Positions 3,483 through 50,000 of a stretch of DNA of 64,000 nt are shown piece after piece. The notes under the pieces were generated by a model that worked only from the letters and a program-made list of their open reading frames with translations, was not told the DNA's origin and did not search any database. The DNA is taken from positions 224,001 through 288,000 of the IMG/VR virus record IMGVR_UViG_3300045988_179014; one strand, given 5' to 3'. The stretch is from a virus. A program made the position numbers and the translations under genes. The stretch's first letter is position 1, and every line of letters begins with the position of its first letter.

Positions 3483-3551
3483 TGGTACTCCTTGTTCAAT
3501 AATGCCACTACTACTATTATATCGATAAGAATCAATATGATTATTAAGGTA

Positions 3552-4345: not shown

Positions 4346-4346
4346 A

Positions 4347-34092: not shown

Positions 34093-35436
34093 TCAAGACG
34101 TAATCAGACTGTTGGAATCTGACACACGCTCCACCAGCCGATTCACCTTGAAACGTACCTGCTCCTGAAACGCTCTACTGCGAAAATGCTTCCGGTCTTT
34201 TTGTTGGACCAATGTCAAAAGAAGACTAGCAGGAATTGATGAATCGATTTGCTGACCGTTATGTAACCAATTCTCCCAGTCAGAAAATGTTGGTAGTTCA
34301 TCAACGTTTTCCGTAACTGTATCTTCAATCAATGCCAGAAAAGAGAAAGCTTTACTTGATTTACCACAAAGGCCTTGCCAGATGATTTCCAATGCTTTTG
34401 AAGTTCCGGCACGATTGAACATGAGACGTGGGTGACTCAAAGCAACAATGAGTGTAAGAAATGTCCGTAACTGGATACTGTTTCTGTGTCTCCAGCAGAA
34501 TTTGAAAATCTCGTGTAACTGATAATTTTGTCCTTTGATTCCATTGATTAAAGTCAGTCTAATCCTATCCAAGAAACTGGACAAACCATAAGGTAACTTG
34601 GATTCAATTGCGTCATATATATAATGTTTCAGCAGTTTGTTGCATTGTTTGTTTAATTCGGTTGACTCAATTCTTCTTTTAGGATGTTTGAGTTCCTGCA
34701 TTGCATAAGACCACACACGCCCAAAATCTCGTGAAGAAGTAAAATACCGATAAGAATAGAACATCAGATGTTCTACCTCAATTTGGCGTAATGAGAGAAT
34801 TTTGTTTTTGTGCTGTTTTTCAACAACAGCATTCCAGCGTAAAATACCATCACCATGACTAGCAGTGATGAGTTTTAAAGTATGAACACCCCAATTCCAA
34901 TCCCAATTATAGAACCTGTCCAGTAGTGTTGACATATTCTGTTTCAAATATTCACCATAGGTATCATCAGACTTGTTCTCATGAATGAAAGCATTAAGAG
35001 TGAAGAATCGAAAAATGCTCTCATCATGCCAACATCTTTCATTCAACAACTGATGTCGCATGATTGGAGCAATAAATGACAACCACTCCTCTGGCGTTTT
35101 TGCTGAACGAATATTTGATTTGAAGTATGAAATGTTCACACTAATCGTAGTGTTAATAGTTTCAAATGACAATTTACCTACAGGAGGAAATGCAGCTAAA
35201 CGAAATGGAAACAAATTAGGGGAACAATTCTTTAAATCAGTAAGTAATCCATCATACAATGGGACATAGGAACCCGCTGCTACATGATTCCAGCCTTTGG
35301 AAAGCTTGTTTGAAAGATAAACAATTAAATCATTACTGGTTCCGGATGGAAAAACCAATTTTGACAGTGGAGTGTAATGTTTAACTTTCAATATGGGGTA
35401 AGTTTTCAGTATGTTAGTTGTTTCCAATGATTCCAT
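34093..35436 (-). CDS. Member 4 of the C-terminal-tail family
   Basis: C-terminus VDELPTFSDWENWLHNGQQIDSSIPASLLLTLV. Confidence 0.45.
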   Translation of the reverse strand: MESLETTNILKTYPILKVKHYTPLSKLVFPSGTSNDLIVYLSNKLSKGWNHVAAGSYVPLYDGLLTDLKNCSPNLFPFRLAAFPPVGKLSFETINTTISVNISYFKSNIRSAKTPEEWLSFIAPIMRHQLLNERCWHDESIFRFFTLNAFIHENKSDDTYGEYLKQNMSTLLDRFYNWDWNWGVHTLKLITASHGDGILRWNAVVEKQHKNKILSLRQIEVEHLMFYSYRYFTSSRDFGRVWSYAMQELKHPKRRIESTELNKQCNKLLKHYIYDAIESKLPYGLSSFLDRIRLTLINGIKGQNYQLHEIFKFCWRHRNSIQLRTFLTLIVALSHPRLMFNRAGTSKALEIIWQGLCGKSSKAFSFLALIEDTVTENVDELPTFSDWENWLHNGQQIDSSIPASLLLTLVQQKDRKHFRSRAFQEQVRFKVNRLVERVSDSNSLITS

Positions 35437-35592: not shown

Positions 35593-36693
35593 TCAGACTG
35601 TCCATAATCTGTCAAAACGGTCAGGTCCATATGATTCAATTGCTACTGGACCCAACATATTTGGTTTCACAGGTCCATTGTTGGTCATGATGTTGGAAAA
35701 TTGGTCCAACCAGCTTATGGCAAGATACGTTGGTTTTACACGTTCTATTGACCATTCCAGCATGTTTTGGTCCCAAAGTCCAGTACGAAAAGCACCGGCC
35801 CATTCAGATGTTCCATTGTGTGGTTCTGGTACTGTTACATGATTCTCATAAGGCATTGGACCTGCACCATGACGGGTAGCATATGTTCTCAAACAACCAT
35901 ATACTGTCACATCCTCCACACCAGCTTGTCGCAACATTGTTCTGGCATTACTTGGGGTAGTAGTGCTCCAGGTGTTGTGAGGTGGTTGACCAAAGTTTTC
36001 ATCCAAAAGAAACCCTTGAGCGCCTTCAAACACAGTATGCCCCACAGTGAGTTCATTCAGAAAATGGTCATTGTCCACCACTTTGAAAACCTGACTAAAT
36101 GCATCCATCATAGTACGAGCCATTGCAAGATAGGTTCCAGGTTCTTGCTCTTCCAATCCCATGTTCTGACCATAAAATTGGAGAAAATCCAGGATTGTAT
36201 CTATTGAGAACATGTCTTTTGCACGTAAAGGAGTATTTCCATGGTATTCCCAAGCAACCGTTTCCCCAAAACCTGTGCCAGTGGAGCCATGACGTGCTTC
36301 TCCTCTGGCTTTTTCCCGAGCATGATTCACAAACACATGTAAAGGAGTAGTCACTTTCGTAAGTTCTGACACATGAATAAAGCGGGTATCTGTTGTCAAA
36401 ACTGGTTTCAATGCTGTTTGTTCTTGCAATGCTGACAATGGGTCAATAGTGCAATATTCTGAAATCCATGTTGGAACTTGTGAAAATGTCCCAGACCCGT
36501 AACTGGAAAAAGTGTGTGACAGTTTTCCAACTTGTACATTGTGTGCAGCTTGTTGTCCCCCATTGAAGCGCACCACTCTTTTGGCTTTGTGACGATGTGC
36601 CAGGTAATCAGTTGTTGCGCCTTTGCATTCATCACCCCAGCCCAGACCCACCACAATGTCAGCAGTGGGTCGGGATGGATTTTTGAAAGTCAT
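35593..36693 (-). CDS. Adenylosuccinate synthetase homolog (PurA-like; short form, possibly PurZ-like)
   Basis: N-terminus IVVGLGWGDECKGATTDYL parallels the PurA P-loop VVVGxQWGDEGKGK; 366 aa versus about 430 for canonical PurA. Confidence 0.6.
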   Translation of the reverse strand: MTFKNPSRPTADIVVGLGWGDECKGATTDYLAHRHKAKRVVRFNGGQQAAHNVQVGKLSHTFSSYGSGTFSQVPTWISEYCTIDPLSALQEQTALKPVLTTDTRFIHVSELTKVTTPLHVFVNHAREKARGEARHGSTGTGFGETVAWEYHGNTPLRAKDMFSIDTILDFLQFYGQNMGLEEQEPGTYLAMARTMMDAFSQVFKVVDNDHFLNELTVGHTVFEGAQGFLLDENFGQPPHNTWSTTTPSNARTMLRQAGVEDVTVYGCLRTYATRHGAGPMPYENHVTVPEPHNGTSEWAGAFRTGLWDQNMLEWSIERVKPTYLAISWLDQFSNIMTNNGPVKPNMLGPVAIESYGPDRFDRLWTV

Positions 36694-37634
36694 CGTAACA
36701 CCTTTGGACCAGCATCGTTTTTACGTGCTAAAGTCTTCCCAACTCGAAGTGCTATTTCTTTACCTGCTGTTTCAGTTAAATCTCGTTCGATAGTGGTACG
36801 GTCGGTTCCTTCCGCGAAACCAACAACTGCGGCAATGGTTTCTGCAATGTTGTTGGGGTCTTCCACAATCAACACTTGCTTTTCTCCAAACAAATTGGCA
36901 TAGAATTCATGTGACCGTTGGAATCGTGCAGCTGAATTGTCAATTAGTAGTACCCATACATGCCATTTCTCAGTTACGGCTTTGGCAATTGATTCATTGC
37001 TCAAATCATCCAACAATGGCTGTTTGTCCCCAATGACTTCACGTACATGGTCTTTGTCGATAGGCACTTGTTTCTCATCTGCTATCAAAAACAAATGTCC
37101 TTTGTGTTTCCGTTTTTCCCAGGAATCTGTCTCGGTGTGAGTTGCTGCATAGTAAAGGAGAAGATTGCTGGTTTCACCATTGTTTCCTCCACCACCACCT
37201 TCTAGGAACATGTTGTCCAAGGCATCATCTACTCGGTTGTCAGATTCGAATTGACCAAACTGTAATGGGACTGAATCGCAATGTGCATCACCATACGTGG
37301 CTACTGCAACTTGTGGGTCCTTGGCGTATCCTTTATCCACCAATAGTTTGAATACTGTTCCCAGTTTTTGTTGCATCACTCTTGGGACAGACCCCATGGA
37401 ACCGGTAGAATCAAATGCAACAATGATGGGAAGGGAATTGGGATGTTCTTTTGAGTCTCGTGATTCTCTAACGTTCAACCCTACTTTGTTCAACTTTTTG
37501 GGGGTCAAATCCTCATGAGCCTTGTACACTCCGGAACTACGAACTGACCGGTCGTAACCAAACGTTGCACCAGTACGAATTTTGCTACTTGTAACACCTG
37601 AATATGTAGCAGCACTCCAAACTCCTCCACCCAT
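36690..37634 (-). CDS. von Willebrand factor A domain protein (TerY-like)
   Basis: MIDAS motif DSTGSMG near the N-terminus; Ter-cluster context. Confidence 0.55.
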   Translation of the reverse strand: MGGGVWSAATYSGVTSSKIRTGATFGYDRSVRSSGVYKAHEDLTPKKLNKVGLNVRESRDSKEHPNSLPIIVAFDSTGSMGSVPRVMQQKLGTVFKLLVDKGYAKDPQVAVATYGDAHCDSVPLQFGQFESDNRVDDALDNMFLEGGGGGNNGETSNLLLYYAATHTETDSWEKRKHKGHLFLIADEKQVPIDKDHVREVIGDKQPLLDDLSNESIAKAVTEKWHVWVLLIDNSAARFQRSHEFYANLFGEKQVLIVEDPNNIAETIAAVVGFAEGTDRTTIERDLTETAGKEIALRVGKTLARKNDAGPKVLR

Positions 37635-37736
37635 GATGACACTCTCCTTGGTCTAGTGGTGAACAGCTATGCGTTAAATATCAGTTTGACCCTTAACACT
37701 GTCATTGTACCAATTTGAACCCGAAAATAACTTATG

Positions 37737-38579
37737 TCAAATGCCTTTAGAAGGTGGAGCAGGAAGAGGGTGCCATTTCGACCCACCAAAATCCTTCTTC
37801 AACGCTGCTTCCCCACGATGAACCGCTTTCTCCACAGGTATTGGACGAAGGCGCATCTCATACAAAAACTTCCCCAACGCTGGCGAAGTTTTTCCAGATT
37901 CCAGCAATAAAGCAGCACTCTGGGACACAGACAGTTCAGTATCAGTTGGATTCCCTGAAAGATATCTTGGCAAGGTGAACGCATATGGAGAAACTTCCAA
38001 TGATGCACCAAGAGGAACAGCAGTCCACCATCCATCCAGTCGTAAACCATGCTCAGAAGGAAGAAGCGCTACTGTATTGGCATTGATGTCTCCATGAACC
38101 CAACCCTCCTGTGCTGCCAAATGAATCACTGTCAGCAGTCGACGCCAAATCCAAGCAATCGTTCTCTCGTCCAATTGTTCGAATGCACTTAGTAACCACC
38201 ATCCAGGCCCGTAACGGCTCTCCAGGGTTAGTTTGTTTCGATGTGGCTCCGGAACCCACTGCACCGGCTCAGAAGACTTCCAGAGGGCATTCTGTGCCTT
38301 CTCAGCCCTATCCAACAAATCCGAGTTCACTGCATCAAAAGACCAATAGATGCTTCCACCGCCAAACTTGCCTGTGGCCAATCGAAGACTCACATCTGGC
38401 GCATGGAACAATGATTCCAATTTTGTAAAAGCAAGATTGGCCTGAGGGTGTTTGCACACATCCGGATGAACTCGAACTTGTGCTTTCCTAAGACCTGTTT
38501 TATCGTGCTCCAACCCCAATTGGTCCCAACTGGTAGCATTGAGAACAATATTTACAAAAGCATCCATGGAAAACTCCAT
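37737..38579 (-). CDS. Protein-kinase-like / phosphotransferase-fold protein with J-domain-like N-terminus
   Basis: VHGDINANTV resembles the kinase catalytic loop HGDLxxxN; the N-terminal LRKAQVRVHPDVCK contains an HPD-like motif. Confidence 0.35.
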   Translation of the reverse strand: MEFSMDAFVNIVLNATSWDQLGLEHDKTGLRKAQVRVHPDVCKHPQANLAFTKLESLFHAPDVSLRLATGKFGGGSIYWSFDAVNSDLLDRAEKAQNALWKSSEPVQWVPEPHRNKLTLESRYGPGWWLLSAFEQLDERTIAWIWRRLLTVIHLAAQEGWVHGDINANTVALLPSEHGLRLDGWWTAVPLGASLEVSPYAFTLPRYLSGNPTDTELSVSQSAALLLESGKTSPALGKFLYEMRLRPIPVEKAVHRGEAALKKDFGGSKWHPLPAPPSKGI

Positions 38580-38618
38580 CTGTTTACAATATTACAAATG
38601 ACAATTACATGATGCCAA

Positions 38619-39488
38619 TTATTGCATGTTTCCATGTTGATTGTTTTGAACAGTTTTCGCAAAATTGGTCCATAACGTTTGAGGGTCGTTGTCGCTCAAA
38701 CCTGACATGCAACCATCATTCAATTCAACCACAGCCCAGCTACCATCAGGGTATTCAGCCATGTCAATCACATAGAACCGCGCCAAGTGTTTTGTCCGGT
38801 CAATTGCATCCATTAAAGCTGTCATGTATTTCGTAAAATCAAGTGGCTGTACACCACTGTATTCAACATGATTGCTCCAATAGAACCCTTCAGAAAGAAT
38901 TCGTCCATCAAGAACAAACACACGTCTTTCATGAAAAATCGGCCTTGAATCCACTGCTTTCCCCAATAGCCGAAAATGCTGAAATGGACGAATCACAATA
39001 CGTTGACTCCCCACATATGTATCACTGAGAACATTGTTGATAATCCTCAGCAAATCATGTTTAGTCTCCGCATAAGCAGCATCAAACCATTTGTTCTTTA
39101 TGGAATTGGTCTCTCCCTTGACAAAATATTCTCCTTCAGGGAGTTTCGGAATATCTTCTATAGAATAGGCTTTCGCTGTCAACCCATCCAAAAGATGGAC
39201 CCATGCAAACAAATCAGCAATGTTTCTATGTTGACTATAACTGTTGACCAGATGACTTCCCAGTAATTGAACCTCTTTGTCCAACTCTGGCCCGAAAGGA
39301 ATTGCTCGGAAACGCGGAATCACCAATGACCCAGCGGGAATTTGGCTGACCATGGTTCCCATATGAGTTCCAAACACTTCTCGGGCAGCATCCAACTCAT
39401 CAGATTCCAAAATGCCTATTTGTGAATCAGAATAAAAATAGTATGGTTGCAGCATTATTTCCCCTTGATATTGTTCGCCAAATCTCAT
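38619..39488 (-). CDS. ATP-grasp family ligase (Ter-associated biosynthetic module)
   Basis: RRVFVLDGRIL...VIDMAEYPDGSWAVVELNDG, typical ATP-grasp C-terminal core. Confidence 0.45.
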   Translation of the reverse strand: MRFGEQYQGEIMLQPYYFYSDSQIGILESDELDAAREVFGTHMGTMVSQIPAGSLVIPRFRAIPFGPELDKEVQLLGSHLVNSYSQHRNIADLFAWVHLLDGLTAKAYSIEDIPKLPEGEYFVKGETNSIKNKWFDAAYAETKHDLLRIINNVLSDTYVGSQRIVIRPFQHFRLLGKAVDSRPIFHERRVFVLDGRILSEGFYWSNHVEYSGVQPLDFTKYMTALMDAIDRTKHLARFYVIDMAEYPDGSWAVVELNDGCMSGLSDNDPQTLWTNFAKTVQNNQHGNMQ

Positions 39489-39509
39489 TATGGGTATGAT
39501 GATGCTAAT

Positions 39510-39731
39510 TTATGGAAGAGTTGACCAAATTTCTTTGCAGGTCGGGCAAATAGGAAATTCCTTGTAATCTCCGAAAGGTACCCACTTTTTACCACACAAC
39601 GCGGTAGCCGGAATACCATCAAAAATGGCACGCTCCAGCTCATCTTTTCTCACATAATGGGCGAACTTATCGTGATTCCCATCATCATTCACAAGTTGCT
39701 TTTCTTCAACCAGCTCATCCAAAACAGTCAT
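39510..39731 (-). CDS. Small Cys-containing protein (DUF3039-like?)
   Basis: CGKKWVPFGDYKEFPICPTC motif. Confidence 0.35.
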   Translation of the reverse strand: MTVLDELVEEKQLVNDDGNHDKFAHYVRKDELERAIFDGIPATALCGKKWVPFGDYKEFPICPTCKEIWSTLP

Positions 39732-39987
39732 TCATACTCCTATCAATCAAAACCTTGAATCCATGATAACACTCCTTCACCACTTGAACAAGTTTGAAGT
39801 TGTCACCAATCAACAGCACTAGATAAACTCATTCCCCCGACCGAACCTGTTACAAGGCAAACACAATTGAATCCTCCTTCATGTATCTTGTGTTTTTGTT
39901 GAGATTATCAGAACAGGAGTGTGGATTGTTTTAACAAAATAGTTCCAAGCATGTGTTATTATGTTAGCTTCTCTATTATGTTATTCA

Positions 39988-40785
39988 TCAACAAACAACA
40001 TGGTCTCGAACAGTGCGCACAATTTCTACTGAAGCTGCCGAACCTTTTTCACAAGTGCGTTTCATGTTGCCAGCATTGTTTCCTTGATTCACGCCATGAA
40101 ACGGAACAATGAACTCAGCAACTTCATCAGCCATGGACAAATCCAGAATACTGTCTCCAGCAGCAAAACTATAACCATAGCCAAAACGAGCAATGATTTC
40201 GGCTACTGCACGTCCTTTACTGATTGGACGAGGAATCAAATAATGTTTTCTTCCTTGTCGTGAATACATTTGATTGTAGTCTTCAGCCATTGCAGCAATC
40301 ATTGTTTCCAGTTTTTGATGATATCCTAACTCAGTGACTACATATGCGAAAAACCCATCAGCATCATGAACTGCTCTGACCCCATCCAATGTGGAAAAAG
40401 TTTTCACAACTTGCTGCAAAACCTGACTTGGAGAATATTCTTCCTGTAGCACCAAGTCTTGCATCATTCGGGTCCAGTTCATGTCTTCCTGTCCATCAAT
40501 TAGTATTTTTGCACCATTGAGAATGATTGCACAATTGTATTGAATCTGCGGGAATTGGATTCTTTGGAATTGACGCATGGTTCGTGTGGTTGTTGGAATG
40601 AAATCAAAAACCTTGGCAGCATGGTCATGTAGAATCTGATATGTTTCCCAGGCCATATAACCTACTGGGGAATTATTACGTTCCTCAACCACCACATGAC
40701 CAGTTGTTTTCTGTCCATGTGAATACAACCCCCGCTGTGAAAAGACAAGAGTATCATCCAAATCAGAGAACAAAACAGTTTTCAT
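39988..40785 (-). CDS. HAD-superfamily phosphatase (Ter-associated)
   Basis: Motif I LFSDLDDTLVFS at the N-terminus. Confidence 0.55.
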   Translation of the reverse strand: MKTVLFSDLDDTLVFSQRGLYSHGQKTTGHVVVEERNNSPVGYMAWETYQILHDHAAKVFDFIPTTTRTMRQFQRIQFPQIQYNCAIILNGAKILIDGQEDMNWTRMMQDLVLQEEYSPSQVLQQVVKTFSTLDGVRAVHDADGFFAYVVTELGYHQKLETMIAAMAEDYNQMYSRQGRKHYLIPRPISKGRAVAEIIARFGYGYSFAAGDSILDLSMADEVAEFIVPFHGVNQGNNAGNMKRTCEKGSAASVEIVRTVRDHVVC

Positions 40786-41945
40786 ATTGCTGCCATTCCG
40801 GTGTGTCCAATGGCTCCACGACTGTATTGAGGATGAATTAAACCAACACAGGCATACGGCAAATCAGACTTTTCCTCCACAGGCACATTTCGTTGATGTG
40901 CCAAAAGTAGAACATGGGTCAATGCGGTTTTGTCTTCAGGTCGTATGAGAATCCGCCATGGTACTCGTCGCAATAAAACTCTCGTTGTCTCCCCTACCCC
41001 AGGTTTCACCAAGTTGACATCATGAATACCATATTCCTCACTGATTTGTTCCACCATGGTCCACCCCATCCAAGACGGTTCATCATATTCGTGAACTCTC
41101 AAAGCCTCATCCACAACATCAAACAATTCAGAACCAAAATGTTCAATTACAGCATCAATGAAATACTGTGACACATCCATAGCAGCAAATTTACGATAAA
41201 ACTTGGCTCCATGGTAATCATTAGGCCCAATACTGTGATTCAAAACAGTACGTGAAATCAAACCCGACACAGTAGAGTTCAAACATGCTGATGGAATCAG
41301 ATAATCCTCCCTGGTCCCATAAACACGAACGCAAGAACCAGGGTCCGCCAGAACTGCCAACTCACTGTTGAAAACAACGCCTTCCTGTTCTGCAAAAAGT
41401 TTCAACGCTTGTGAAAGTTCCTTCGTTATGGCTCCTTTACCCGTCCATCCATCAATGAAAACAACACAGTCAGGGTTGTGATGTTTTGCAATATAGCGCA
41501 ACGCATTGAAATCGATACCTTTTCCTCGAACAATACTGACCGCATAGTGTGGAACCTGTATCTGATAACGCTGCTCCAAATAACGTTTGACCAGAATTCC
41601 AACAGGTGTCCCCGCACGAGCCAACGACACCAGAACCGGATTCCCGCCTCGCAGAAACCGAACCTGTTCAGCTACCATGCCAACCGCTTTCGCCAGTTTC
41701 TCACTGTTTTGGGCAAGAGATGAAAAGAACAATTGAACATACTCGTCAGATGGTACATATTCCACAGGCAAGGATTCAGCATAGTGTGCTCTACCTGATT
41801 GTATTGCTTCTTCCCGTTCCTCAACTGATGCTTCCAGTTTGCTTCTGGACAAATCTTTCAACAACCAAGCAACATCATCAAAACAGTATGAACCGAACTG
41901 AGGGCCATGCAAAGGTTTCGGTAATATAACATCTTCTGGAATCAT
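40782..41945 (-). CDS. Ter-cluster-associated protein, possibly divergent PRTase-like
   Basis: CVVFIDGWTGKGAI weakly resembles a PRTase nucleotide-binding loop; gene overlaps both neighbours, so likely in an operon. Confidence 0.3.
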   Translation of the reverse strand: MIPEDVILPKPLHGPQFGSYCFDDVAWLLKDLSRSKLEASVEEREEAIQSGRAHYAESLPVEYVPSDEYVQLFFSSLAQNSEKLAKAVGMVAEQVRFLRGGNPVLVSLARAGTPVGILVKRYLEQRYQIQVPHYAVSIVRGKGIDFNALRYIAKHHNPDCVVFIDGWTGKGAITKELSQALKLFAEQEGVVFNSELAVLADPGSCVRVYGTREDYLIPSACLNSTVSGLISRTVLNHSIGPNDYHGAKFYRKFAAMDVSQYFIDAVIEHFGSELFDVVDEALRVHEYDEPSWMGWTMVEQISEEYGIHDVNLVKPGVGETTRVLLRRVPWRILIRPEDKTALTHVLLLAHQRNVPVEEKSDLPYACVGLIHPQYSRGAIGHTGMAAI

Positions 41946-43267
41946 ATGGATTGTCCTTCCGTCATTGTCAAAACTGTTATAGTACTGGTTCGCCCTTGAA
42001 ATGCTCTCAACAATGGTTCAATACTGTAATGCCCTATTTGACTGTGAACAGGTATGACAATATGGTCATAATCCCAACCAATGTTGTAAGCATAACGTTT
42101 CACATTGTCACATTCCAACAAATAACGAATCCGGTCTTTGATAGCATAATCATCCCTGTCAGCGCTGAGAACCGGCGACCTTGTGGTAGACGAAAAATTG
42201 ACATCATATCCGTCTGTTTCCAATGAAGAAGCCAACAGGAAAGGCAGGAACATGTCTTCCTCTATTCCCAATACCAGAACCTTCTCATCAGGACACACAG
42301 CGGTTTTCTGTTTCCATTCATCAACCAAATGAAACAAATTCCAGAAATCATCATTCTGCACACCTTGTGAAAGAGGTTTGTATCCACTATTGGTGACTTC
42401 ATGTCTATATACTGTAGTTTTGCGTTTAGTTTTTACAGGTTCAGGTAATTGTTTCAACTGATTCAACAAAGGTTGCGCTTTTTTCACTGAATCATTCGGA
42501 ACATTCAACTCCATGGAAAGCAATGAAACAACAGTGATTTGAATACCCAGATTGTGTGCAAACTGTTTGAAAACCTTGTGTGCTTTTTGAGTTCTTAAAT
42601 CCGTGAGTGTGGCAATATAATAATGAGTGTGATGCTGATGTGATTCAAACAGTTCAATGGTGTTCATAACTGTGTTCCCTGTGGTCAGTTCATCATCCAC
42701 CAAAACAATGATTCGTTCAGGTTCATCCAATATGTTTGTTGTTTCTGGTGTGATGTGATGAGAACTGGCATGAGAATGGGACTCTTCAAAACTGCCATAA
42801 TCTTGATACTCACTGATGGGGTAACGGGTGGAATGAATATAACTTGCTCTCAGATGTGATGCCACCAGTGCGCCCAAATTGGTGGCAGTTTCAGCATAAC
42901 CAAACACAGTTATTGGTGTTGACAGTTTGTGCAATAATGGTAAAGATGAGTAATGGCTCTTCAACGCTTTTTGCATCATATGAGCGGATTCCAGCTGTAG
43001 CATGAGTGAATCCACAGTGGGCGATGTGTGGTGGGCCTGTATCTGCCATGCCAGTTCTGCGGCTGCATGATTGATTATACTTGGTTTCTGCGGAACATGT
43101 TTCCCCAGAAGATTGGACACCAACAAATGTGCTCTTTTCGGGTTTTTACGTAATGCCATACCCAGAAATGACTGAAAAGCTTGAAATTGTGTAGTGTTTT
43201 TGGGTCTAATGTTCAAAGCATTGCTGACAAAATCACCAGACCATGTGTTGTGTAGTGTTTCAGTCAT
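41942..43267 (-). CDS. Phosphoribosyltransferase (type I PRTase domain with N-terminal extension)
   Basis: RIIVLVDDELTTGNTV is the canonical PRPP-binding motif. Confidence 0.6.
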   Translation of the reverse strand: MTETLHNTWSGDFVSNALNIRPKNTTQFQAFQSFLGMALRKNPKRAHLLVSNLLGKHVPQKPSIINHAAAELAWQIQAHHTSPTVDSLMLQLESAHMMQKALKSHYSSLPLLHKLSTPITVFGYAETATNLGALVASHLRASYIHSTRYPISEYQDYGSFEESHSHASSHHITPETTNILDEPERIIVLVDDELTTGNTVMNTIELFESHQHHTHYYIATLTDLRTQKAHKVFKQFAHNLGIQITVVSLLSMELNVPNDSVKKAQPLLNQLKQLPEPVKTKRKTTVYRHEVTNSGYKPLSQGVQNDDFWNLFHLVDEWKQKTAVCPDEKVLVLGIEEDMFLPFLLASSLETDGYDVNFSSTTRSPVLSADRDDYAIKDRIRYLLECDNVKRYAYNIGWDYDHIVIPVHSQIGHYSIEPLLRAFQGRTSTITVLTMTEGQSI

Positions 43268-43270
43268 TGA

Positions 43271-44443
43271 TTACACCATATATTGTTCCAGGAAATCAGC
43301 AAAACCCACATGTTCACGACTTACTCCAAACATTCGGGCACGGGATTGAATGTTTCGCGCCCAAGCAGTGTGTGGTTTGACTTCATTCATTTTGTTTCCA
43401 TATGTGGAAGCCATGACACCACCATTGTCGTCCCTGCTCAAAATGTCCATGGCATCAACATACTCTTCATGTGAAACAACCATCAGAGAATGAACAATGC
43501 CAACATGACTGGGGTGAATGACTGTTTTTCCTGTTATCCCGTTCAACTTGTCCAATTGTACTTCGCGAATGAAAGTGTCATTGCCTTCTGTCACCAGTTT
43601 TGCACGCAGGGTTTTGTCATGGGCAAAAATGCTTTCACACAACAATGGTTTGAAAGTACGTTCAGAAGGCGCAAAATGTTCCCAGACCGCGCCAGTGATG
43701 ACACGATTGTCTTCTGCTCGTCCCAACATGTTCACAATGTCCGAAATGGCAGAAGCAACAACATGGACATCATAAACAGTGAATTCTCGGGACCGGCGCA
43801 ACCCATACGCAGAAGACATGTCAGTGGCTCCAATACGTACTGCCAATAAAGAATCCATTGAATGGGCCAGAATACGTTGCACATGGGAGAGAGTGTAGTG
43901 ACGGGTGTCCTGATGAATAATCCGAGGCGACTCAATCACTGGCATGTAATACAAGCTGGTCGTAGCAGTTCTGTTGTAACACTGCAACACATCCACAAAT
44001 GCTTGACCACGAGACAAATCATCAAACTTGGGAAAAACAAAGCCAGTCAAACTTGATAGCAATATACCGTTTTGTTCAATAATGTGTTCTAAATGTTCAG
44101 GTGAGCGAACACGTACAAACAACAATGGCAAATCAGAATTACCAATTGCTGCTAATTTGCGTAATAATTCATACAAATTGTGCTCTGCTTCTTTCACCTT
44201 CTCGTCTGGTATCGAATCCTCCAAACAGAGAACCACCGAAGTGGTATCGTTCTGATAGGCTTTTTTCAAATCCTCTAACAAATCAGAACGTGTGGCAGGC
44301 ATATACAATGTTGCTCCCAAAGAATAACTGAGCAATTTTTTATCAGTATATTGGTTGAATCTTTCCGGGAGGCGATAGAATAAATCTTTTTCAGCTGGAG
44401 TGTTACGTAAAAAATTGAAATGTCTCACAATCAGTCCTATCAC
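43271..44443 (-). CDS. HpcH/HpaI aldolase / citrate-lyase beta-like TIM-barrel C-C lyase (Ter-associated)
   Basis: Size, position in the PRTase / HAD / ATP-grasp operon, and overall pattern; assignment is tentative. Confidence 0.4.
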   Translation of the reverse strand: MIGLIVRHFNFLRNTPAEKDLFYRLPERFNQYTDKKLLSYSLGATLYMPATRSDLLEDLKKAYQNDTTSVVLCLEDSIPDEKVKEAEHNLYELLRKLAAIGNSDLPLLFVRVRSPEHLEHIIEQNGILLSSLTGFVFPKFDDLSRGQAFVDVLQCYNRTATTSLYYMPVIESPRIIHQDTRHYTLSHVQRILAHSMDSLLAVRIGATDMSSAYGLRRSREFTVYDVHVVASAISDIVNMLGRAEDNRVITGAVWEHFAPSERTFKPLLCESIFAHDKTLRAKLVTEGNDTFIREVQLDKLNGITGKTVIHPSHVGIVHSLMVVSHEEYVDAMDILSRDDNGGVMASTYGNKMNEVKPHTAWARNIQSRARMFGVSREHVGFADFLEQYMV

Positions 44444-45180
44444 AAATGTGCGAAAAATGCTTGCACGCTATTGTCGTTATTGTCAGTGTTGATAGTTGAT
44501 GTTTCTTGTGCTGGTCTGTCCGTTATTCTAAAAGTTGCGTGAACACTGTGCCGAAACTGTTCTTGTCTCAATTCCAGTGCTGAATTAACTGTTGAAATGT
44601 AAAGAACTTGGTTGGGGCGATAATTCATTGAAACAGTTGGACTCTTAATTGTCCCCAATTTCAGGCTTGTGTCGTCTTTGGGAGCTATTACCATTCGGCG
44701 TAGTTGTTTGTAGTGCCGTAAAGACATCACCAGTGCACCTTTGTGAAATTCGATTAATGGACGATTACCGAATCTGGGTGGTTCACGTTCCGGTAATGAA
44801 GCTTGTATTCTCAGTTCGCCTGTAACGGCATCAACAACATTGGAGGGTGGTGGAGTAACCCCAGGAGCGTATAAGAACCCTGAGGCCCCATTCTGAGCCT
44901 CCCAGGCCACATAAGCAACCCCAGTTACCACCAGTGAACCAATAGCAGTTTGCCGTGTATTGAAACGCACCACTGGATGGTCACAGTCAAACACCCAATC
45001 ATGTTTCAATACAGGTACTTCATAACCAATTGAGACAGTAGTGTTTTCTTCAGAATCGTTTTTGGAAACAAGTTGGATTGAAGTTGATACCGATGGTGGC
45101 GAAGTTACCAGCTCTCCTGTTCGTAATCGTCTACGTATGTAGGTAATGAATGGTTTGGGGTCACGTAAATTTACACTCAT
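44440..45180 (-). CDS. Hypothetical protein in the Ter cluster
   Basis: ORF overlapping its neighbours (operon). Confidence 0.35.
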   Translation of the reverse strand: MSVNLRDPKPFITYIRRRLRTGELVTSPPSVSTSIQLVSKNDSEENTTVSIGYEVPVLKHDWVFDCDHPVVRFNTRQTAIGSLVVTGVAYVAWEAQNGASGFLYAPGVTPPPSNVVDAVTGELRIQASLPEREPPRFGNRPLIEFHKGALVMSLRHYKQLRRMVIAPKDDTSLKLGTIKSPTVSMNYRPNQVLYISTVNSALELRQEQFRHSVHATFRITDRPAQETSTINTDNNDNSVQAFFAHL

Positions 45181-45731
45181 TACAGAGACACCTTAAAATC
45201 ATTGGCCACTTGAACAATACCACCAGCATATCCTTGACCCACCGCACGGAACTTCCACTCAGTATTACGACGATAAATTTCCCCCATGAGAACTGCATTG
45301 ATGTCCGATGAGGATTGGGGCAACTCAAAACGAACCAATTCAGAAAGCGCACGGTCCATTATCCGCATATGAGCATGACGAACTGCACCAAAATTACCGG
45401 GATTACGAACTTCCGGGTCCACATATAGGAGAAAAACCATTTTGGACACATTTTCTGGCACTGCTGACAACGTTATTTCGATTTGGTCATTGTCTTCATT
45501 CCCTTCAACGTACTGAACAGTTCCATCAGTTGTTGACAATTGGTTGAAAAACAGAAAATGCTCATCACTCAAAGCGTGACCATTTTCCCCCACAAGAATA
45601 ACGGCTGGAACGATTTGCAGTTGTGGTCCTGAACCTTGAATTGTGTTCCACCCAAACCCAACCACCAAATCATTCAGTAAAGGGTTTTCTCGTGTGATGG
45701 ATACATTCGCGCCAGGTTGCAATGAGGCCAT
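45180..45731 (-). CDS. terD: TerD-family stress protein
   Basis: TerD-domain similarity to the two downstream paralogs (GWN...GENG, NFGAVRHAHMRI). Confidence 0.7.
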   Translation of the reverse strand: MASLQPGANVSITRENPLLNDLVVGFGWNTIQGSGPQLQIVPAVILVGENGHALSDEHFLFFNQLSTTDGTVQYVEGNEDNDQIEITLSAVPENVSKMVFLLYVDPEVRNPGNFGAVRHAHMRIMDRALSELVRFELPQSSSDINAVLMGEIYRRNTEWKFRAVGQGYAGGIVQVANDFKVSL

Positions 45732-45794
45732 AGTATCTCCTTATTCTAACGATTAACCTAATAATAGCACGAAACATATAATATGGCACATACA

Positions 45795-46268
45795 TCAGAG
45801 CGATTGAGAAAACCGTTCCTCCACAAAAGCGGTTTGTACATCAAGGTCTCGTTCCACTCGTTGTTTCATGGATTCCAACAACTCCAACATGCTTTTTTCA
45901 TAATTGTCACATTGAGTCAGCAATTGTTTGTCCGCAACACTGTCATCACAACGTTCTTCAGCTGGCAATTGATTGAAAAGATTCAAAGCATCAGGAATGT
46001 AGCTGGTCAAAGTGGCCTTGATTAAATATTCCTCTTCTGCACGAATATTATATGTTGTCAAGAAAGGACGGGTTTTACGTAACAAATCATTTATTCCACG
46101 TAATCGGGAATAAACTCTTGTGGATACATATGCTGAACATTCGCGTTCATACCAATCCAGCATATCCAACCATTCATCCATTTTCTGTACAAAAGGTACA
46201 ACAGGTGATGCAACTGGAGGAACAGGTTGCTGATTTTTCTTGCGAAAGAGTTTGTCAAACATTTCCAT
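45795..46268 (-). CDS. Hypothetical protein (Ter cluster)
   Basis: ORF only. Confidence 0.35.
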   Translation of the reverse strand: MEMFDKLFRKKNQQPVPPVASPVVPFVQKMDEWLDMLDWYERECSAYVSTRVYSRLRGINDLLRKTRPFLTTYNIRAEEEYLIKATLTSYIPDALNLFNQLPAEERCDDSVADKQLLTQCDNYEKSMLELLESMKQRVERDLDVQTAFVEERFSQSL

Positions 46269-46324
46269 GCCTTACCAGAAAAGGAGGGGCGAACATGAAC
46301 CACCCCTCCTCATCTCAAATAGAT

Positions 46325-47554
46325 TCAATTACCAAGCTGTTTCCTGGAAGAATCAGGAGCCGTCAAAACAGCATCTTCCTGAGATTTCATACGTGAAAGA
46401 ACTGGTTCAGCTCTATGCAATTCATTACCTAGAGCATTAATGGTTTGTGCCATGCTTTCATTTGCCTTTTGTTTGAATTGCTCCACTTCATCCAATGTGG
46501 CATAAATGTTGTCAAATGCTTTGGTCAGGGTTTCCACCGCTACCCCAGAATTCACAGCTTGTTCATGTACACGAGAAGTGTTCTGTCGCAACATAATAGA
46601 GGTCTGTTCAATGGTGTTGTTTGTTACAGTATTGACTGCATCGATTTGGTCCAACACCAGTTTTTGGTCATCCAGCGCTTGAGCAACAATAACCGCTGTC
46701 CGTAGAGCAAAAATGGTTGTGGTTCTGGCGCGGTCCACTCCTTTAATCAATTCCACGTTGTTCTTCTTGACCAAATCCATTGCCATGTACCCTTGAACTG
46801 CAACAGCCAATTGGGTCATCAAATCCTGACGCCGCTGACGAACTGGAAACAACAAATCTGATTCCACTGCGTTCGCTTCATCAATCCGTCCAGCTCGTTT
46901 CGACTCATCTATCTTTTCAACCAACGAATCGTCCATTTTCTCGGCAAAAACAATGTATTCGTTGAGTTCACCCATGTTTTTCCACAATAAGCGCTTCTCT
47001 TGTTCCAGCGAGGCATTGTCTTTCATCAACTCATCTTGGCCTGCTAGAAGAGATTTCACAATGTGGTCCAACTGTCCTTGTGCATTTTCGTATTTTTGGA
47101 AGTATTTACGAATTTTCTTACCGCCAGGAAACAAACCCAAGAATTTTTGAACACCGGTCAAATCAGCAGCATTGGGTGTTAAGTCCTCAACTGTGGAACG
47201 AAGTTCAGCAAGTGTTCCAGCAACTTTTTGTGTGGCATCCCCTGCATTATGTGAACCTGACACTGATGAAGACCGACTCTGCAACAAACGATTTGGGCCT
47301 TCAGAGGAACTAACCACTTGGTCATGCCCCAACGATTGAACATCTTTGACCAGTTGACCAAACTCTGGGGAATGCGGATTGAGGGTAATAGCATGACTCG
47401 CTAGTTGATTTGCTTGACTGCTGATTTCCAGTTCTCTTGTTTGTGTCAATGCTGGAATCAAACCAGAAGCTTTTTCAGGTGCAACTTTTTCAACTGGTTT
47501 CGTTGTTTCCAGTTGTAATGGTTGTTGAATTTCTTCAGGAGGTGTGAGTGTCAT
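46325..47554 (-). CDS. telA: TelA/KlaB-like toxic-anion-resistance protein
   Basis: ~400-aa largely helical protein between TerD genes; typical Ter/Kla operon context. Confidence 0.5.
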   Translation of the reverse strand: MTLTPPEEIQQPLQLETTKPVEKVAPEKASGLIPALTQTRELEISSQANQLASHAITLNPHSPEFGQLVKDVQSLGHDQVVSSSEGPNRLLQSRSSSVSGSHNAGDATQKVAGTLAELRSTVEDLTPNAADLTGVQKFLGLFPGGKKIRKYFQKYENAQGQLDHIVKSLLAGQDELMKDNASLEQEKRLLWKNMGELNEYIVFAEKMDDSLVEKIDESKRAGRIDEANAVESDLLFPVRQRRQDLMTQLAVAVQGYMAMDLVKKNNVELIKGVDRARTTTIFALRTAVIVAQALDDQKLVLDQIDAVNTVTNNTIEQTSIMLRQNTSRVHEQAVNSGVAVETLTKAFDNIYATLDEVEQFKQKANESMAQTINALGNELHRAEPVLSRMKSQEDAVLTAPDSSRKQLGN

Positions 47555-47654
47555 ATGAATTCCTTTTGATTCTATGGATTTTTATGCTGAAACGGATAGG
47601 GTGGAATTGGTTTTGCTTCCTTCCCACCCCATCCGCTTTGATTATTCATCACAA

Positions 47655-48236
47655 TCACACATTTACCCCAAAGTCACGTGCAATACCTGCCAGTCCACTG
47701 TTGTAACCCTGACCAATAGCGCGGAACTTCCAACCTACTCCATTATTATCACGATATAATTCAGCAAAATTCAAAGCAGTTTCAGTGGATGCGTCTTCAG
47801 ACAAATCGTATCGAACTACTTCGGCACCAGACAATGCGTCCAACAGCCGAACATAAGCGTTACGAACCATACCAAAATTCTGTCTACGTGTATCAGCTTG
47901 GTCGATGGATACAGCAATGACGATACGTTCTACATCTGTGGGCACTCGACTCAGGTCAATCTCAATAACTTCGTCGTCCCCATCGCCTTCACCAGTACGG
48001 TTGTCTCCCTGATGAACGACAGAACCACTTTCATGACACTTTTGATTGTAAAAAACAAAGTCGACATCACTGCGAACTTTTCCATTAGAGTCTAGTAGGA
48101 TGGCAGAGGCGTCCAAATCAAATTGGTCTCCTGATGTGGACCGAACATCCCAACCCAGTCCTGCCAATACCTTTGTTAATCCAGGAGCTTCTTTTGCCAA
48201 TGAAATGTTGCCACCTTTGGACAATGAAATAGCCAT
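47655..48236 (-). CDS. terD: TerD-family protein
   Basis: MAISLSKGGNISLAKEAPGLTKVLAGLGWD is the canonical TerD N-terminus. Confidence 0.8.
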   Translation of the reverse strand: MAISLSKGGNISLAKEAPGLTKVLAGLGWDVRSTSGDQFDLDASAILLDSNGKVRSDVDFVFYNQKCHESGSVVHQGDNRTGEGDGDDEVIEIDLSRVPTDVERIVIAVSIDQADTRRQNFGMVRNAYVRLLDALSGAEVVRYDLSEDASTETALNFAELYRDNNGVGWKFRAIGQGYNSGLAGIARDFGVNV

Positions 48237-48276
48237 GATTTTTCCTTTCGTATTTGATGTTATTGTTTAATCTATA

Positions 48277-48873
48277 TCATGCTACTAGTTGACGTGCTTT
48301 ATTCACCATGTCTTGAACTGTTCGTCCAGGAGCAAATTGACCAATAGCAGCAAACTCCCAACCTGAACCAACACGGGAAAGGCGAGCAATGAACACCCCA
48401 GTAGTGTTATGAGATTCCGCCAGGTTGTAACGAACAATCTCTTTCTCAGCGCCATCTGACAAATCAACCACCCGAGCGAAAACATTCTCCACATCATTAA
48501 AGGTTTGCCCACTGTATGAATTAATTGTGAATACAATATGTTTCACATTGGAAGCAACCTGATTCAGGTCCACAATAATTTGTTCATCATCTCCATCGCC
48601 TGAACCAGTGAGGTTGTCCCCAGTGTGTTTAACCGAGTGGTCCTGTGATGTCAAATGGTTGAAGAAAACTGTTTCAGCACGTGAATCTGAAGTCAACAGA
48701 ATAGCAGAAGCATCCAAATCAATTTCGGCGCCACCACTGCCACCAAAACGGAAGAATCCACGCTTTTTACGTTGAGCTTCATCCCAACCCAGCCCTAAAC
48801 GAACTCGTGTCAGTGTAGTACCATCGTTTTTCGCCAAGGAAATGCTCTGTCCCTTGCTTAATGAAAGTGCCAT
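48277..48873 (-). CDS. TerD-family protein (TerE/TerZ-like paralog)
   Basis: MALSLSKGQSISLAKNDG...LGLGWD; a GGSGG insertion. Confidence 0.75.
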   Translation of the reverse strand: MALSLSKGQSISLAKNDGTTLTRVRLGLGWDEAQRKKRGFFRFGGSGGAEIDLDASAILLTSDSRAETVFFNHLTSQDHSVKHTGDNLTGSGDGDDEQIIVDLNQVASNVKHIVFTINSYSGQTFNDVENVFARVVDLSDGAEKEIVRYNLAESHNTTGVFIARLSRVGSGWEFAAIGQFAPGRTVQDMVNKARQLVA

Positions 48874-48908
48874 GTTAAACTCCTTTTACAAATAGGATAG
48901 GTAATTGA

Positions 48909-50000
48909 TTATTCAGTAGTTTCTGTAATTTTTGCTTCGGAACGGTTACGAACAATTGACGAGATGAAAGCAGCCAGAATGAGCACAATACCTACTAAAC
49001 CTGTTACAACTTCTGGAACAGGAATGGCAATGCTGACTACCAGCAATACTGCCAAAGCACCAATCGCCCAGTGAGCCCCATGGTCCAAGTAAACATATTC
49101 ATTCAATGTACCTTTACGGACAAGATAGACTGTGATGGAACGAACAAACATGGCTCCGATAAGACCTAGACCAAGAGCTATAATGATTGGGTCCGTGGTA
49201 ATGGCCAACGCACCAATCACTCCATCAAAGCTGAAACTTGCATCCAACACCTCCAGATAGAGGAAACTGAAAAATGCAGCCTTTCCGACCAATTTGATGG
49301 CCCCCGATTTTTGCTGGGTTTCCTCATCTTCCTCCAAACGTTTCTCAAAGAAAGTCCCCAACCCGTTGACCAGCAAATAGGTGAGAAGTCCAGCCACTCC
49401 AGCAATCATTACAGTAGCAGCTTGCTCCTTCGCCTCCATAGATAAAACTATTAATGCCAACAGTGATACCAGAACAGCAGCATTGTCAAGTTTTCCTACT
49501 TTTGCCAAGAATTTTTCAATGGGTTGCAACCAGTGAAGTTCTCGTTCTGGGTCAAATACCCAATCCAGGAACAACATTAACAGGAACATGCCGCCAAATG
49601 CTGCGATTTGTGGGTGTGCTGCATGAAGAATGTATGCATATGTTCCTGGAGTCTCTATGGAACCTCCACGTAACGCCAACTCCCATGCTTCAACAGGCGA
49701 TAAACCAGTGGTTACACCAACAATAAGTATGGGAAACAGAATCCTCATACCAAAAACTGCAATCGCAATACCTACTGTCAAGAAGATTTTCTGCCAGAAT
49801 TCCGACATCTTCTCCAAAATACGAGCATTCACAACAGCATTGTCAAATGATACGGACACTTCAAAGGCACCCAGCAATAAAACAAGTAGGGCTCCTGTCC
49901 ATGACCCATAAAGAAACCCTACACATAGTGCAATAATAGACACCACACCCGACCAACCAAAAATTCGTAATGGATGGTCCGTGGATGATGTTTTGTTCAT
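48909..50000 (-). CDS. terC: TerC-family integral membrane protein
   Basis: Multiple TM helices; directly downstream of TerD genes. Confidence 0.55.
   Translation of the reverse strand: MNKTSSTDHPLRIFGWSGVVSIIALCVGFLYGSWTGALLVLLLGAFEVSVSFDNAVVNARILEKMSEFWQKIFLTVGIAIAVFGMRILFPILIVGVTTGLSPVEAWELALRGGSIETPGTYAYILHAAHPQIAAFGGMFLLMLFLDWVFDPERELHWLQPIEKFLAKVGKLDNAAVLVSLLALIVLSMEAKEQAATVMIAGVAGLLTYLLVNGLGTFFEKRLEEDEETQQKSGAIKLVGKAAFFSFLYLEVLDASFSFDGVIGALAITTDPIIIALGLGLIGAMFVRSITVYLVRKGTLNEYVYLDHGAHWAIGALAVLLVVSIAIPVPEVVTGLVGIVLILAAFISSIVRNRSEAKITETTE

Follow-up and report, generated by a model that had tools for sequence, protein, structure and literature searches.

Ter stress-response clusters with a linked biosynthetic module were reportedly described by Anantharaman, Iyer and Aravind in 2012, and the ter islands of enterobacteria confer resistance to tellurite, phages and colicins. 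One such island, on the Klebsiella plasmid pKPNSF-2-1, consists of terZABCDE together with ATP-grasp, phosphoribosyltransferase (PRTase), StiP, HpcH and TerY-P genes; in Nocardia farcinica NCTC11134, genes for TerC/DUF475, TerD, a lyase, PRTase_2, StiP/PELOTA and a HAD protein make up the nearest sequenced Ter example to the locus described here, and its best match in the plasmid database. A second kind of system is found in the Bixzunavirus Tonenili, a Mycobacterium phage in which gp106–gp104, on one strand, encode a kinase, a hypothetical protein and a PurA-like protein (phrog_3043, phrog_2971 and phrog_1211). Here we analyse a 14.4-kb run of genes (positions 35593–50000) in which homologs of both systems stand side by side, within a stretch of 64,000 nucleotides, hereafter the window, that covers positions 224,001 to 288,000 of the IMG/VR virus record IMGVR_UViG_3300045988_179014. 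Our principal conclusion, to which we give a probability of about 0.78, is that the run comprises three juxtaposed modules in an accessory region of a jumbo-phage-like genome: an actinobacterial-type Ter cluster, a DUF3039 gene next to an R2K.3-family ATP-grasp gene, and an autonomous trio that is not an arm of the Ter pathway. The members of the trio are K (a J-domain fused to a protein-kinase-fold domain), V (a vWA-fold protein with a metal-ion-dependent adhesion site, MIDAS) and P (a divergent enzyme of the PurA superfamily).

Compared with the Nocardia locus, the Ter genes of the window occur in the same order, TerC, TerD, lyase and StiP being 47–64% identical to their counterparts, PRTase_2 and HAD about 31%; unlike that locus, they sit on a 337-kb phage-like contig with a G+C content of about 41%. 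The cluster includes TelA and two open reading frames (ORFs) without family, and has no Ter-type ATP-grasp, TerB or TerY-P. The Klebsiella island shares TerD, TerC, PRTase, StiP, the lyase and a HAD-like gene with the window, but its gene order is different and identity in the biosynthetic core is 25–34%. It also has TerA, TerB, a Ter-type ATP-grasp and a vWA–PP2C–kinase triad, all missing from the window, whereas it lacks PurA and, unlike the window, has neither TelA nor a DUF475-type TerC. The trio matches the Tonenili genes in family, order and strand arrangement, V at 36% and P at about 36% identity, and is closer (45–75%) to versions from uncultured jumbo phages and from Micrococcales/Bifidobacteriaceae than to those of Tonenili.

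A sequence-only reading of this DNA had joined the PurA homolog, the vWA protein, the kinase and the ATP-grasp enzyme to the Ter cluster as an expanded arm, and had named co-occurrence of the PurA homolog with Ter genes elsewhere as its check. An alignment-based scan recovered relatives of V, a single-protein scan of viral and genome collections having given none, and these were confirmed in well-studied mycobacteriophages, in 168 stretches of species-representative bacterial genomes and in 500 or more metagenome stretches. We compared 112 loci, 108 of them reached with a V profile (80 in species-representative bacterial genomes, 28 in IMG/VR) and 4 through PurA-like homologs, and a further 80 loci from the metagenome scan, which makes about 190 in all, with the IMG/VR and metagenome sets partly overlapping. 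Loci were retrieved by degenerate peptide patterns, taking ±10 kb around V, with naive ORF calling in the high-GC loci, and were surveyed using a tblastn panel of 21 window proteins in addition to profile searches on the ORFs. P adjoined V in 111 of the 112 loci (tblastn), the exception being cut at the locus end; K was detectable upstream of V in 81, and the same-strand order K–V–P was kept in most. The bacterial carriers were almost all Actinomycetota (among them Nocardia, Gordonia, Antribacter, Galactobacter, Actinomyces, Micromonospora and Streptosporangium). Genes for TerD, TelA, the C-C lyase, PRTase_2, StiP, HAD, R2K.3 and DUF3039 were found within ±10 kb in none of the 112 loci, and a TerC-like match in a single one, the distant contig L111; among the 80 metagenome loci, the only one with Ter genes (L137) was a 94–99% identical copy of the same phage. 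Apart from the TerC-like genes considered below, Ter genes accompany the trio only in copies of the same phage among about 190 loci, and the proposed joint conservation with Ter does not hold up. In phage-like contigs and an Antribacter genome, P homologs with 48–62% identity are preceded by two ORFs without a Pfam match, the counterparts of K and V, and no Ter genes are nearby. Clustering of the neighbours around the trio, noisy from antisense ORFs in high-GC genomes, yielded no widely conserved gene but Nudix.

The reverse search, from Ter genes towards the trio, used IMG/VR profiles of the C-C lyase and of StiP/PELOTA. The trio was absent (tblastn panel) from the five IMG/VR contigs reached via the lyase, which carry either three TerD genes with HAD, lyase, PRTase and StiP, or a deoxynucleoside monophosphate (dNMP) kinase with lyase, PRTase, StiP and PD-(D/E)XK, and it was also not found at the Ter modules of the GenBank phage record MT836648, the Nocardia locus and the Klebsiella plasmid. 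We conclude, from gene neighbourhoods compared in both directions, that K–V–P is an autonomous, widespread three-gene module, itself of uncharacterised function, that is not part of the Ter pathway. Of what enters into this explanation, the folds, the gene content, the residue replacements and the statistics on synteny are observed. The PurA homolog accordingly tells nothing about Ter chemistry, which removes an unsupported extension of the hypothesis that Ter clusters make a nucleoside-like metabolite; at the same time, a conserved and uncharacterised three-gene module is exposed in bacteria, metagenomes and well-studied mycobacteriophages.

The trio has a company of its own. An NrtR-like Nudix gene whose Nudix box is intact stands directly upstream of K in 29 of the 112 loci, in several actinobacterial genera and in the jumbo contigs L005 and L087–L092. 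In these contigs the genes run NAPRTase, (NadE), PncA-like, Nudix/NrtR, K, V, P, and a Gordonia genome has its weak Nudix match after P instead of ahead of K. The window has a Nudix gene of this kind, whose product shares 66–68% identity with that of its counterpart just ahead of K in L005 and L087–L089. It belongs to a block of the nicotinamide adenine dinucleotide (NAD) salvage type on the minus strand (2703–6507), which consists of a NAPRTase-like gene (5212–6507), a 182-aa ORF, a PncA-like gene (3755–4345) and the Nudix gene; NadE, present in the block of related jumbo contigs, was not seen in that of the window. Since these Nudix and NAD-salvage orthologs lie 32 kb away, the trio of this lineage has been parted from the genes that it usually adjoins and stands beside Ter instead. 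Judged by the loci compared, its natural company is an NrtR-like Nudix gene and, in the nearest phage relatives, NAD-salvage genes, not Ter.

The nearest non-identical relative, L134, is 58% identical in K, 74% in V and 61% in P, and has the order truncated TerC, 85-aa ORF, DUF3039, 68-aa ORF, K, V, P, HD protein, with no TerD, TelA or biosynthetic genes. Residues 2–166 of its TerC (3158–3892) are 85% identical to the TerC of the window and are followed by unrelated sequence; this identity is higher than that of any trio gene (58–74%), though the contig looks far more GC-rich (by eye, in the alignment). The truncated gene looks like the remnant of a recent deletion or the product of a recent exchange, and L134 suggests that the neighbourhood of Ter and trio predates the species to which the window belongs. 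That the trio persists there with only a TerC remnant again argues for functional independence. In L111, a distant viral contig (V 32%, P 29% identity), a full-length DUF475/TerC gene (15694–16710, 41% identity) lies about 3 kb downstream of P, with no other Ter genes.

Several points weigh against an autonomous trio in a jumbo-phage genome. First, both L134 and L111 have a DUF475/TerC gene at a distance of 1–4 kb from the trio, a possible sign of a weak association that recurs, although it is too rare to be called one, and pattern-based retrieval within ±10 kb would miss more distant Ter genes. Second, the genes of the run share a strand and short spacers, with no convincing terminator or promoter between HAD, the DUF3039/R2K.3 pair and the trio, and co-transcription together with a phage-specific functional link between Ter and trio is possible. 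Third, vWA and kinase genes, those of the TerY-P triad, likewise stand next to the biosynthetic arm of the enterobacterial ter island, and the analogy drawn by the sequence-only reading was therefore not arbitrary. Fourth, the roles of the PurA residues on which the aspartate-site argument (below) is built are those that we presume from the literature on the E. coli enzyme. Lastly, the window contains no phage structural gene, so that the jumbo phage stays an inference and not a demonstration.

Some of these points also speak for the alternative that P, the vWA protein, the kinase and the ATP-grasp enzyme together add a step to the Ter pathway, namely a GTP-dependent addition of aspartate to the Ter metabolite. 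Such a pathway would agree with the shared strand and tight spacing, the 4-bp overlap of V and P, the lack of a clear terminator between HAD and the trio, the stability of the arrangement in strain variants, the vWA and kinase genes that flank the biosynthetic arm of classical ter islands, and the TerC genes near the trio in L134 and L111. We nevertheless consider it quite improbable, given that outside this phage species no TerD, TelA or Ter biosynthetic genes occur in the roughly 190 V-centred loci, that the panel-searched viral Ter-core contigs and the Nocardia and Klebsiella loci have no trio, that L134 has the trio without the Ter core, and that relatives tie the trio to Nudix and NAD-salvage genes. 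Within the run itself, the aspartate-binding residues of P are replaced, the ATP-grasp enzyme is of the R2K.3 family, and P is the last gene. As far as gene order can decide, synteny has already largely refuted the added Ter step.

We also examined the residues of P. Its score falls far below the NCBIfam cut-offs of both PurA (122 bits against 402) and PurZ (36 bits against 300), and in the PDB its family profile finds E. coli PurA (1ADE) at 1e-55 and PurZ (6FM1, 6FKO) at 1e-6. Like PurA and PurZ, it has the same fold with a GDxxKG P-loop, the catalytic Asp and His, Q224, the GAGP loop and the guanine-specificity Asp; unlike PurA, it has aspartate-site residues replaced or deleted and has lost a C-terminal subdomain of about 57 residues. 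We aligned 109 P homologs to E. coli PurA, whose numbering is used throughout. The family keeps G12, D13, K16 and G17 of the P-loop, H41, E221–G225 including Q224, T239, R272, G274, G276, P277, D333, G416 and P417; the GTP P-loop, the guanine-specificity Asp and the catalytic pair Asp13/His41 are conserved in at least 106 of the 109. Replacements affect N38 (Q in 107/109), S240 (W in 100/109), V273 (H in 108/109), T129 (C in most members), K331 (H), T300 (Y, W or F), T301 (Q or A) and R305 (F, W, M or L), while R143 is not conserved and R303 is deleted in all 109. We take T300, T301, R303, R305 and V273 to be the L-aspartate determinants of the E. coli enzyme.

This pattern suggests that P is a neofunctionalised PurA-superfamily enzyme, with a remodelled aspartate site, a conserved GTP and catalytic site and a nucleotide pocket that is kept in part. 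Because the GTP site is kept and the aspartate residues are replaced, P most likely ligates a nucleophile other than aspartate, and the replacement of the aspartate-binding residues throughout the family speaks against the aspartate addition earlier assigned to the PurA homolog. Most likely, P would carry out GTP-dependent phosphoryl activation and amine ligation on a purine-like nucleotide, possibly a modified one, a mechanism read from residue patterns and synteny only. It is in this sense a testable candidate for new nucleotide chemistry, possibly linked to NAD or ADP-ribose biology.

Two simpler identities for P have to be weighed against this. If P were an ordinary adenylosuccinate synthetase, an auxiliary metabolic gene that raises the supply of AMP during infection, this would account for the clear Adenylsucc_synt homology, the best PDB match to E. 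coli PurA, the intact GTP and catalytic residues and the presence of ribonucleotide reductase (RNR) and NAD-salvage genes in the window. Such an identity is very unlikely, however, for an enzyme that reaches less than a third of the PurA equivalog cut-off, that has R303 deleted and the equivalents of T300, T301, R305 and V273 replaced, and for which V is an obligate partner, and K a usual one, in bacteria as in phages; bacterial carriers would also be expected to have a housekeeping purA elsewhere. Alternatively, P could be of the PurZ type and make 2-aminoadenine (Z) nucleotides for a phage with a Z genome, as the RefSeq/PHROGs label of its phage homologs ('2-aminooxy adenylosuccinate synthetase') and its shortness (366 aa), like that of PurZ and archaeal PurA, might suggest. 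We rejected PurZ identity on the NCBIfam and PDB profile scores given above, and we regard it as extremely improbable: most members of the P family are chromosomal genes of Actinomycetota, and no MazZ, DatZ or DpoZ was noticed among the annotated ORFs of the window, which were not scanned for them systematically.

V, the direct neighbour of P, scores below the Pfam vWA cut-off (20.5 bits against 23.8), and its AlphaFold2 (AF2) model, with a predicted local distance difference test score (pLDDT) of 85, matches the vWA domains of integrin beta-I, SpaC, TFIIH p44 and RGLG1 in Foldseek. The MIDAS motif (DxTGS) is present in V at all 112 loci, and the N-terminal MGxGxW at a minimum of 102 of them (at least 102/112), with MGxGx-aromatic in about 110 of 112 homologs. 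Residues 1–12 of V read MGGGVWS...TY, and such N-terminal conservation is unusual; since the extreme N-terminus combines conservation with low AF2 confidence, a role as docking or substrate peptide is possible. The reading frames of V and P, which share 4 bp in the window and at many of the other loci, are translationally coupled. K keeps the motifs HGD and HGLxLD in its close subfamily; because the catalytic Asp is lost in more distant members (Tonenili, L004), it may be a regulated kinase, or a pseudokinase scaffold to which the J-domain recruits Hsp70. Both K and V would probably act as partner, scaffold or regulator of P. We infer this chemistry, the partners and the biological role from residue patterns and synteny; the searchable literature holds no reported function for the trio genes, only genome announcements having turned up.

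A further possibility is that K–V–P is a TerY-P-like signalling or defence triad in which the PurA-like enzyme replaces PP2C, which would make it a Ter accessory in a wider sense. The trio occupies the position of TerY-P in the enterobacterial island, and both cassettes consist of three genes that pair a vWA/MIDAS protein with a protein of the protein-kinase fold, a combination that resembles TerY-P (PMC11090510). The third gene, however, codes for a PurA-like ligase in one and for PP2C in the other, and K carries a J-domain where the TerY-P kinase has a zinc ribbon or OB fold. Comparison by hhalign gave a probability of 12% for V against TerY and 6% for K against the TerY-P kinase, which reflects the generic fold and no specific sequence relationship. 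There is no PP2C in the trio and no Ter association elsewhere, PADLOC gave no match for the trio (nor for R2K.3, DUF3039, TelA, TerD or the family-less ORFs), and many carriers are lytic phages. Taken together, we consider a TerY-P-like triad unlikely. The vWA gene that had been called TerY-like therefore keeps its fold, borne out by the AF2 model and the MIDAS motif, and loses the relationship to TerY, while the gene described as kinase-like does have a protein-kinase fold.

Beyond the autonomy of the trio, we offer a bolder and tentative proposal, doubtful as it stands, that K–V–P, often with an NrtR-like Nudix protein, would be an undescribed nucleotide-ligase system of Actinomycetota and their phages. 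P would join a GTP-activated purine-type nucleotide to a non-aspartate amine, K would recruit host Hsp70 or regulate the reaction, and in phages the system would act in taking over the host or in countering its defences, in connection with NAD metabolism. If this were true, one candidate for the amine would be the almost universally conserved N-terminal glycine of V, yielding a covalent protein–nucleotide adduct, and another would be an NAD- or ADP-ribose-related metabolite; Ter and the trio would then be two systems that condition the host independently of each other, placed within one accessory island.

All 16 ORFs of the run were confirmed on the minus strand with short spacers or small overlaps between them (Table 1). 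Four pairs overlap by 4 bp (V/P, StiP/HAD, PRTase/StiP and the 246-aa ORF/lyase) and one, TerD3 and the 246-aa ORF, by 1 bp. The overlaps noted in the sequence-only reading are real. That reading had placed the PurA homolog at the head of the operon; since all 16 genes lie on the minus strand, the direction of transcription makes TerC the first gene and P the last. The low-GC, mobile-looking context that it described stands as to the phage-like mobile setting, whereas the difference in GC is small (0.42–0.445 in the cluster versus 0.38–0.41 in the flanks). We judged domain labels by Pfam matches against curated cut-offs, with NCBIfam, PHROGs, PADLOC and the PDB as further libraries; most of the proposed labels passed, with the ATP-grasp enzyme turning out to be R2K.3 and the gene listed as unknown at 40782–41945 to be StiP/PELOTA.

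Table 1. Modules, genes and RNA features of the run and the Nudix gene of the window, in window coordinates.
Feature	Position	Strand	Evidence or remark
Module 1: actinobacterial-type Ter cluster	39988–50000	-	
Module 2: DUF3039 and R2K.3 ATP-grasp	38619–39731	-	
Module 3: K–V–P trio (J-domain/kinase-fold K, vWA/MIDAS V, PurA-superfamily P)	35593–38579	-	
TerC-family membrane protein, DUF475 type	48909–50000	-	Pfam DUF475 2.8e-122, TerC 3.5e-15
TerD paralog 1	48277–48873	-	Pfam TerD 5.9e-49
TerD paralog 2, most canonical of the three	47655–48236	-	Pfam TerD 2e-81
G+C-rich hairpin in TerD2–TelA spacer, possible attenuator or terminator	47591–47636	-	-32.7 kcal/mol, z -4.81
TelA	46325–47554	-	Pfam TelA 8.3e-81
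Hairpin and U-run directly after TelA, intrinsic-terminator-like	46275–46311	-	-25.2 kcal/mol, z -3.97, then UUUUCU
157-aa ORF without family, within Ter cluster	45795–46268	-	kept in strain variants
TerD paralog 3	45180–45731	-	Pfam TerD 2.4e-48
246-aa ORF without family, just upstream of biosynthetic core	44440–45180	-	overlaps neighbours by 1 and 4 bp
TIM-barrel C-C bond lyase	43271–44443	-	Pfam C-C_Bond_Lyase 2e-114, HpcH_HpaI 3e-07
PRTase_2 + TRSP phosphoribosyltransferase	41942–43267	-	Pfam PRTase_2 2e-58, TRSP 7.6e-23
StiP cysteine-protease-like + PELOTA RNA-binding domain protein	40782–41945	-	Pfam StiP 1.3e-104, PELOTA_1 1.2e-35
HAD-superfamily phosphatase, last Ter-module gene	39988–40785	-	Hydrolase_3 19.3 bits vs cut-off 20.9
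DUF3039 small Cys protein	39510–39731	-	Pfam DUF3039 1.2e-22, phrog_8575
R2K.3-family ATP-grasp, predicted peptide/protein ligase	38619–39488	-	R2K_3 5.4e-19, R2K_2 6.3e-11
K: J-domain (HPD) fused to compact protein-kinase-fold domain	37737–38579	-	
V: vWA-fold protein, MIDAS motif DSTGS, conserved MGxGxW N-terminus	36690–37634	-	AF2/Foldseek, phrog_2971 1.1e-50
P: divergent PurA-superfamily enzyme, 366 aa	35593–36693	-	Pfam Adenylsucc_synt 1.3e-44
NrtR-like Nudix protein	2703–3482	-	Nudix box GFVNTNESLDDAAARELKEE; 32 kb from trio

The first module is a genuine actinobacterial-type Ter cluster with a linked biosynthetic core: it has three TerD genes, TerC, TelA and a core of PRTase_2/TRSP, C-C lyase, StiP/PELOTA and HAD, the core genes being ordered as in the Nocardia locus. 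Its earlier identification as a Ter stress/defence cluster was sound, with TerC, the three TerD proteins and TelA above their Pfam cut-offs, and so was the assignment of the PRTase, the HAD protein and the TIM-barrel lyase to the Ter-linked set; the ATP-grasp enzyme, as R2K.3 and not of the Ter-associated family, drops out of that set. Identity to the Nocardia homologs is 59% for TerC/DUF475, 64% for TerD paralog 2 (59% to Klebsiella TerD/TerE), 47.5% for the lyase (about 30% to the enterobacterial plasmid copies) and 59% for StiP/PELOTA. The HAD protein has intact DxDxT and GDxxxD motifs (DLDDT and GDSILD) and has homologs encoded next to the core in the Ter loci L117, L118, L120 and L135 (the Nocardia locus), where they are likewise HAD proteins; its gene is followed by a 256-bp gap, the largest within the run. 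No match to the Ter-type ATP-grasp (Pfam ATPgrasp_Ter) was found, the sole ATP-grasp of the run fitting R2K_3/R2K_2, and this gene also appears absent or variable in other Ter loci (L117, L119). TerB and PP2C had no profile match among the cluster proteins. For the 157-aa ORF there was no match in Pfam (E up to 5), NCBIfam, PHROGs, PADLOC or the PDB, and for the 246-aa ORF no significant match in permissive Pfam, NCBIfam, PHROGs, PADLOC or PDB searches; the head of the core is an ATP-grasp gene in the Klebsiella island, and here it is the 246-aa ORF that lies upstream of the core.

By analogy with plasmid ter determinants, the phage would most likely use the Ter cluster to condition the infected cell, which could mean the handling of membrane or metal-ion stress or the exclusion of competing phages or colicins, and by the same analogy the biosynthetic core would make a phosphoribosyl-derived metabolite. 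A full actinobacterial-type Ter cluster with its biosynthetic core can thus ride on a jumbo-phage-like element, which bears on the ways in which infected cells are conditioned or protected by large phages. StiP/PELOTA relatives were found by profile search in only 8 contigs of the IMG/VR collection of 2.9 million. Among other viral Ter loci, the 244-kb IMG/VR contigs L119 and L121 have a core of C-C lyase, PRTase_2 and StiP/PELOTA without TerD (at about 9195–14259), with genes for a dNMP kinase and a PD-(D/E)XK nuclease at its flanks, and these TerD-less cores hint at a use in nucleotide or DNA-related chemistry by some large phages. In L117 (6063–8687), and also in L118, a P-type cation ATPase lies between the TerD triplet and the HAD–lyase–PRTase–StiP core, and a GmrSD_N-domain protein is encoded downstream.

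In the second module, the ATP-grasp enzyme has a R2K_3 score of 69.4 bits against a cut-off of 26.3 and no ATPgrasp_Ter match in Pfam; by these profiles it belongs to the R2K.3 family (described in PMC4431377) and not to the Ter-associated ATP-grasp family. It is absent from the other Ter loci and the other trio loci compared. The DUF3039 gene, by comparison, is also found upstream of K–V–P in L134, which is without the Ter core. A tie of DUF3039/R2K.3 to either flanking module could not be demonstrated. We also considered whether the two genes form a conserved pair and rejected this, the only phage R2K.3 match (LR745208) having no other window gene nearby.

Signals for transcription were sought by RNA folding, consensus scans and k-mer searches. 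None of 200 shuffles folded as well as the hairpin in the TerD2–TelA spacer, whose U-tail is weak, and a second, terminator-like hairpin directly follows TelA. The 256-bp HAD–DUF3039 gap and the stretch that follows P did not fold better than their shuffles, the scan for consensus promoters and terminators gave no excess over shuffles, and the k-mer search found no shared upstream motif.

The ENA metagenome contig ERZ27262748 k119_28504, 337.4 kb in length, codes for a PurA-like protein identical to P, as do four contigs similar to it, and the same arrangement was found in several contigs and samples and was stable in strain variants. We considered an assembly chimera and rejected it, because the arrangement recurs in independent samples and is no artefact of assembly. 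In megablast searches of the 14.4-kb region against phages and plasmids, the only match was a 44-bp word in terE, and there is no close DNA relative of the window among the deposited phages or plasmids. The nearest relatives of several window genes are IMG/VR contigs of 180–398 kb, and from gene content and these relatives we infer, with good support, that the genome is that of a jumbo phage. Besides the genes discussed above, the window holds an RNR small subunit, a RecE/YqaJ-like exonuclease and helicases, and its gene content as a whole is typical of accessory regions in very large phages.

Further genes in the window are of kinds that act on ADP-ribose or RNA. Three tandem paralogous ADP-ribosyltransferase genes (ADPrib_exo_Tox/ART, Alt-like) occupy 10466–14064 on the minus strand, adjoined by an ADP-ribosylglycohydrolase-like gene (9052–10095, minus), and an ART-PolyVal protein is encoded just upstream of TerC (50767–51570). 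Two genes of the RNA-repair type, for a T4 Pnkp-like polynucleotide kinase (14812–15966) and a Tpt1/KptA RNA 2'-phosphotransferase (29453–30016), are also found on the minus strand, and RNA ligases, PNKP, Thg1 and 2H phosphoesterases occur near the trio in L003, L004, L005, L115 and L116. Upstream of the Ter region and divergent from it, a plus-strand gene (51635–53425) codes for an ATPase of the SMC_N/AAA_15/AAA_21 type (phrog_14451), a domain set that is common in defence ATPases. A tRNA with a CTA anticodon (2577–2649, minus), labelled tRNA-Pyl by ARAGORN and of the amber-suppressor type, could indicate TAG recoding in part of the phage genome; the ORFs of the window read normally in the standard code. 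Downstream of the trio lie three minus-strand genes of about 441–447 aa without family (30142–31467, 32277–33602 and 34093–35436), possibly distant paralogs, since they weakly resemble one another as well as genes that follow the trio in L134.

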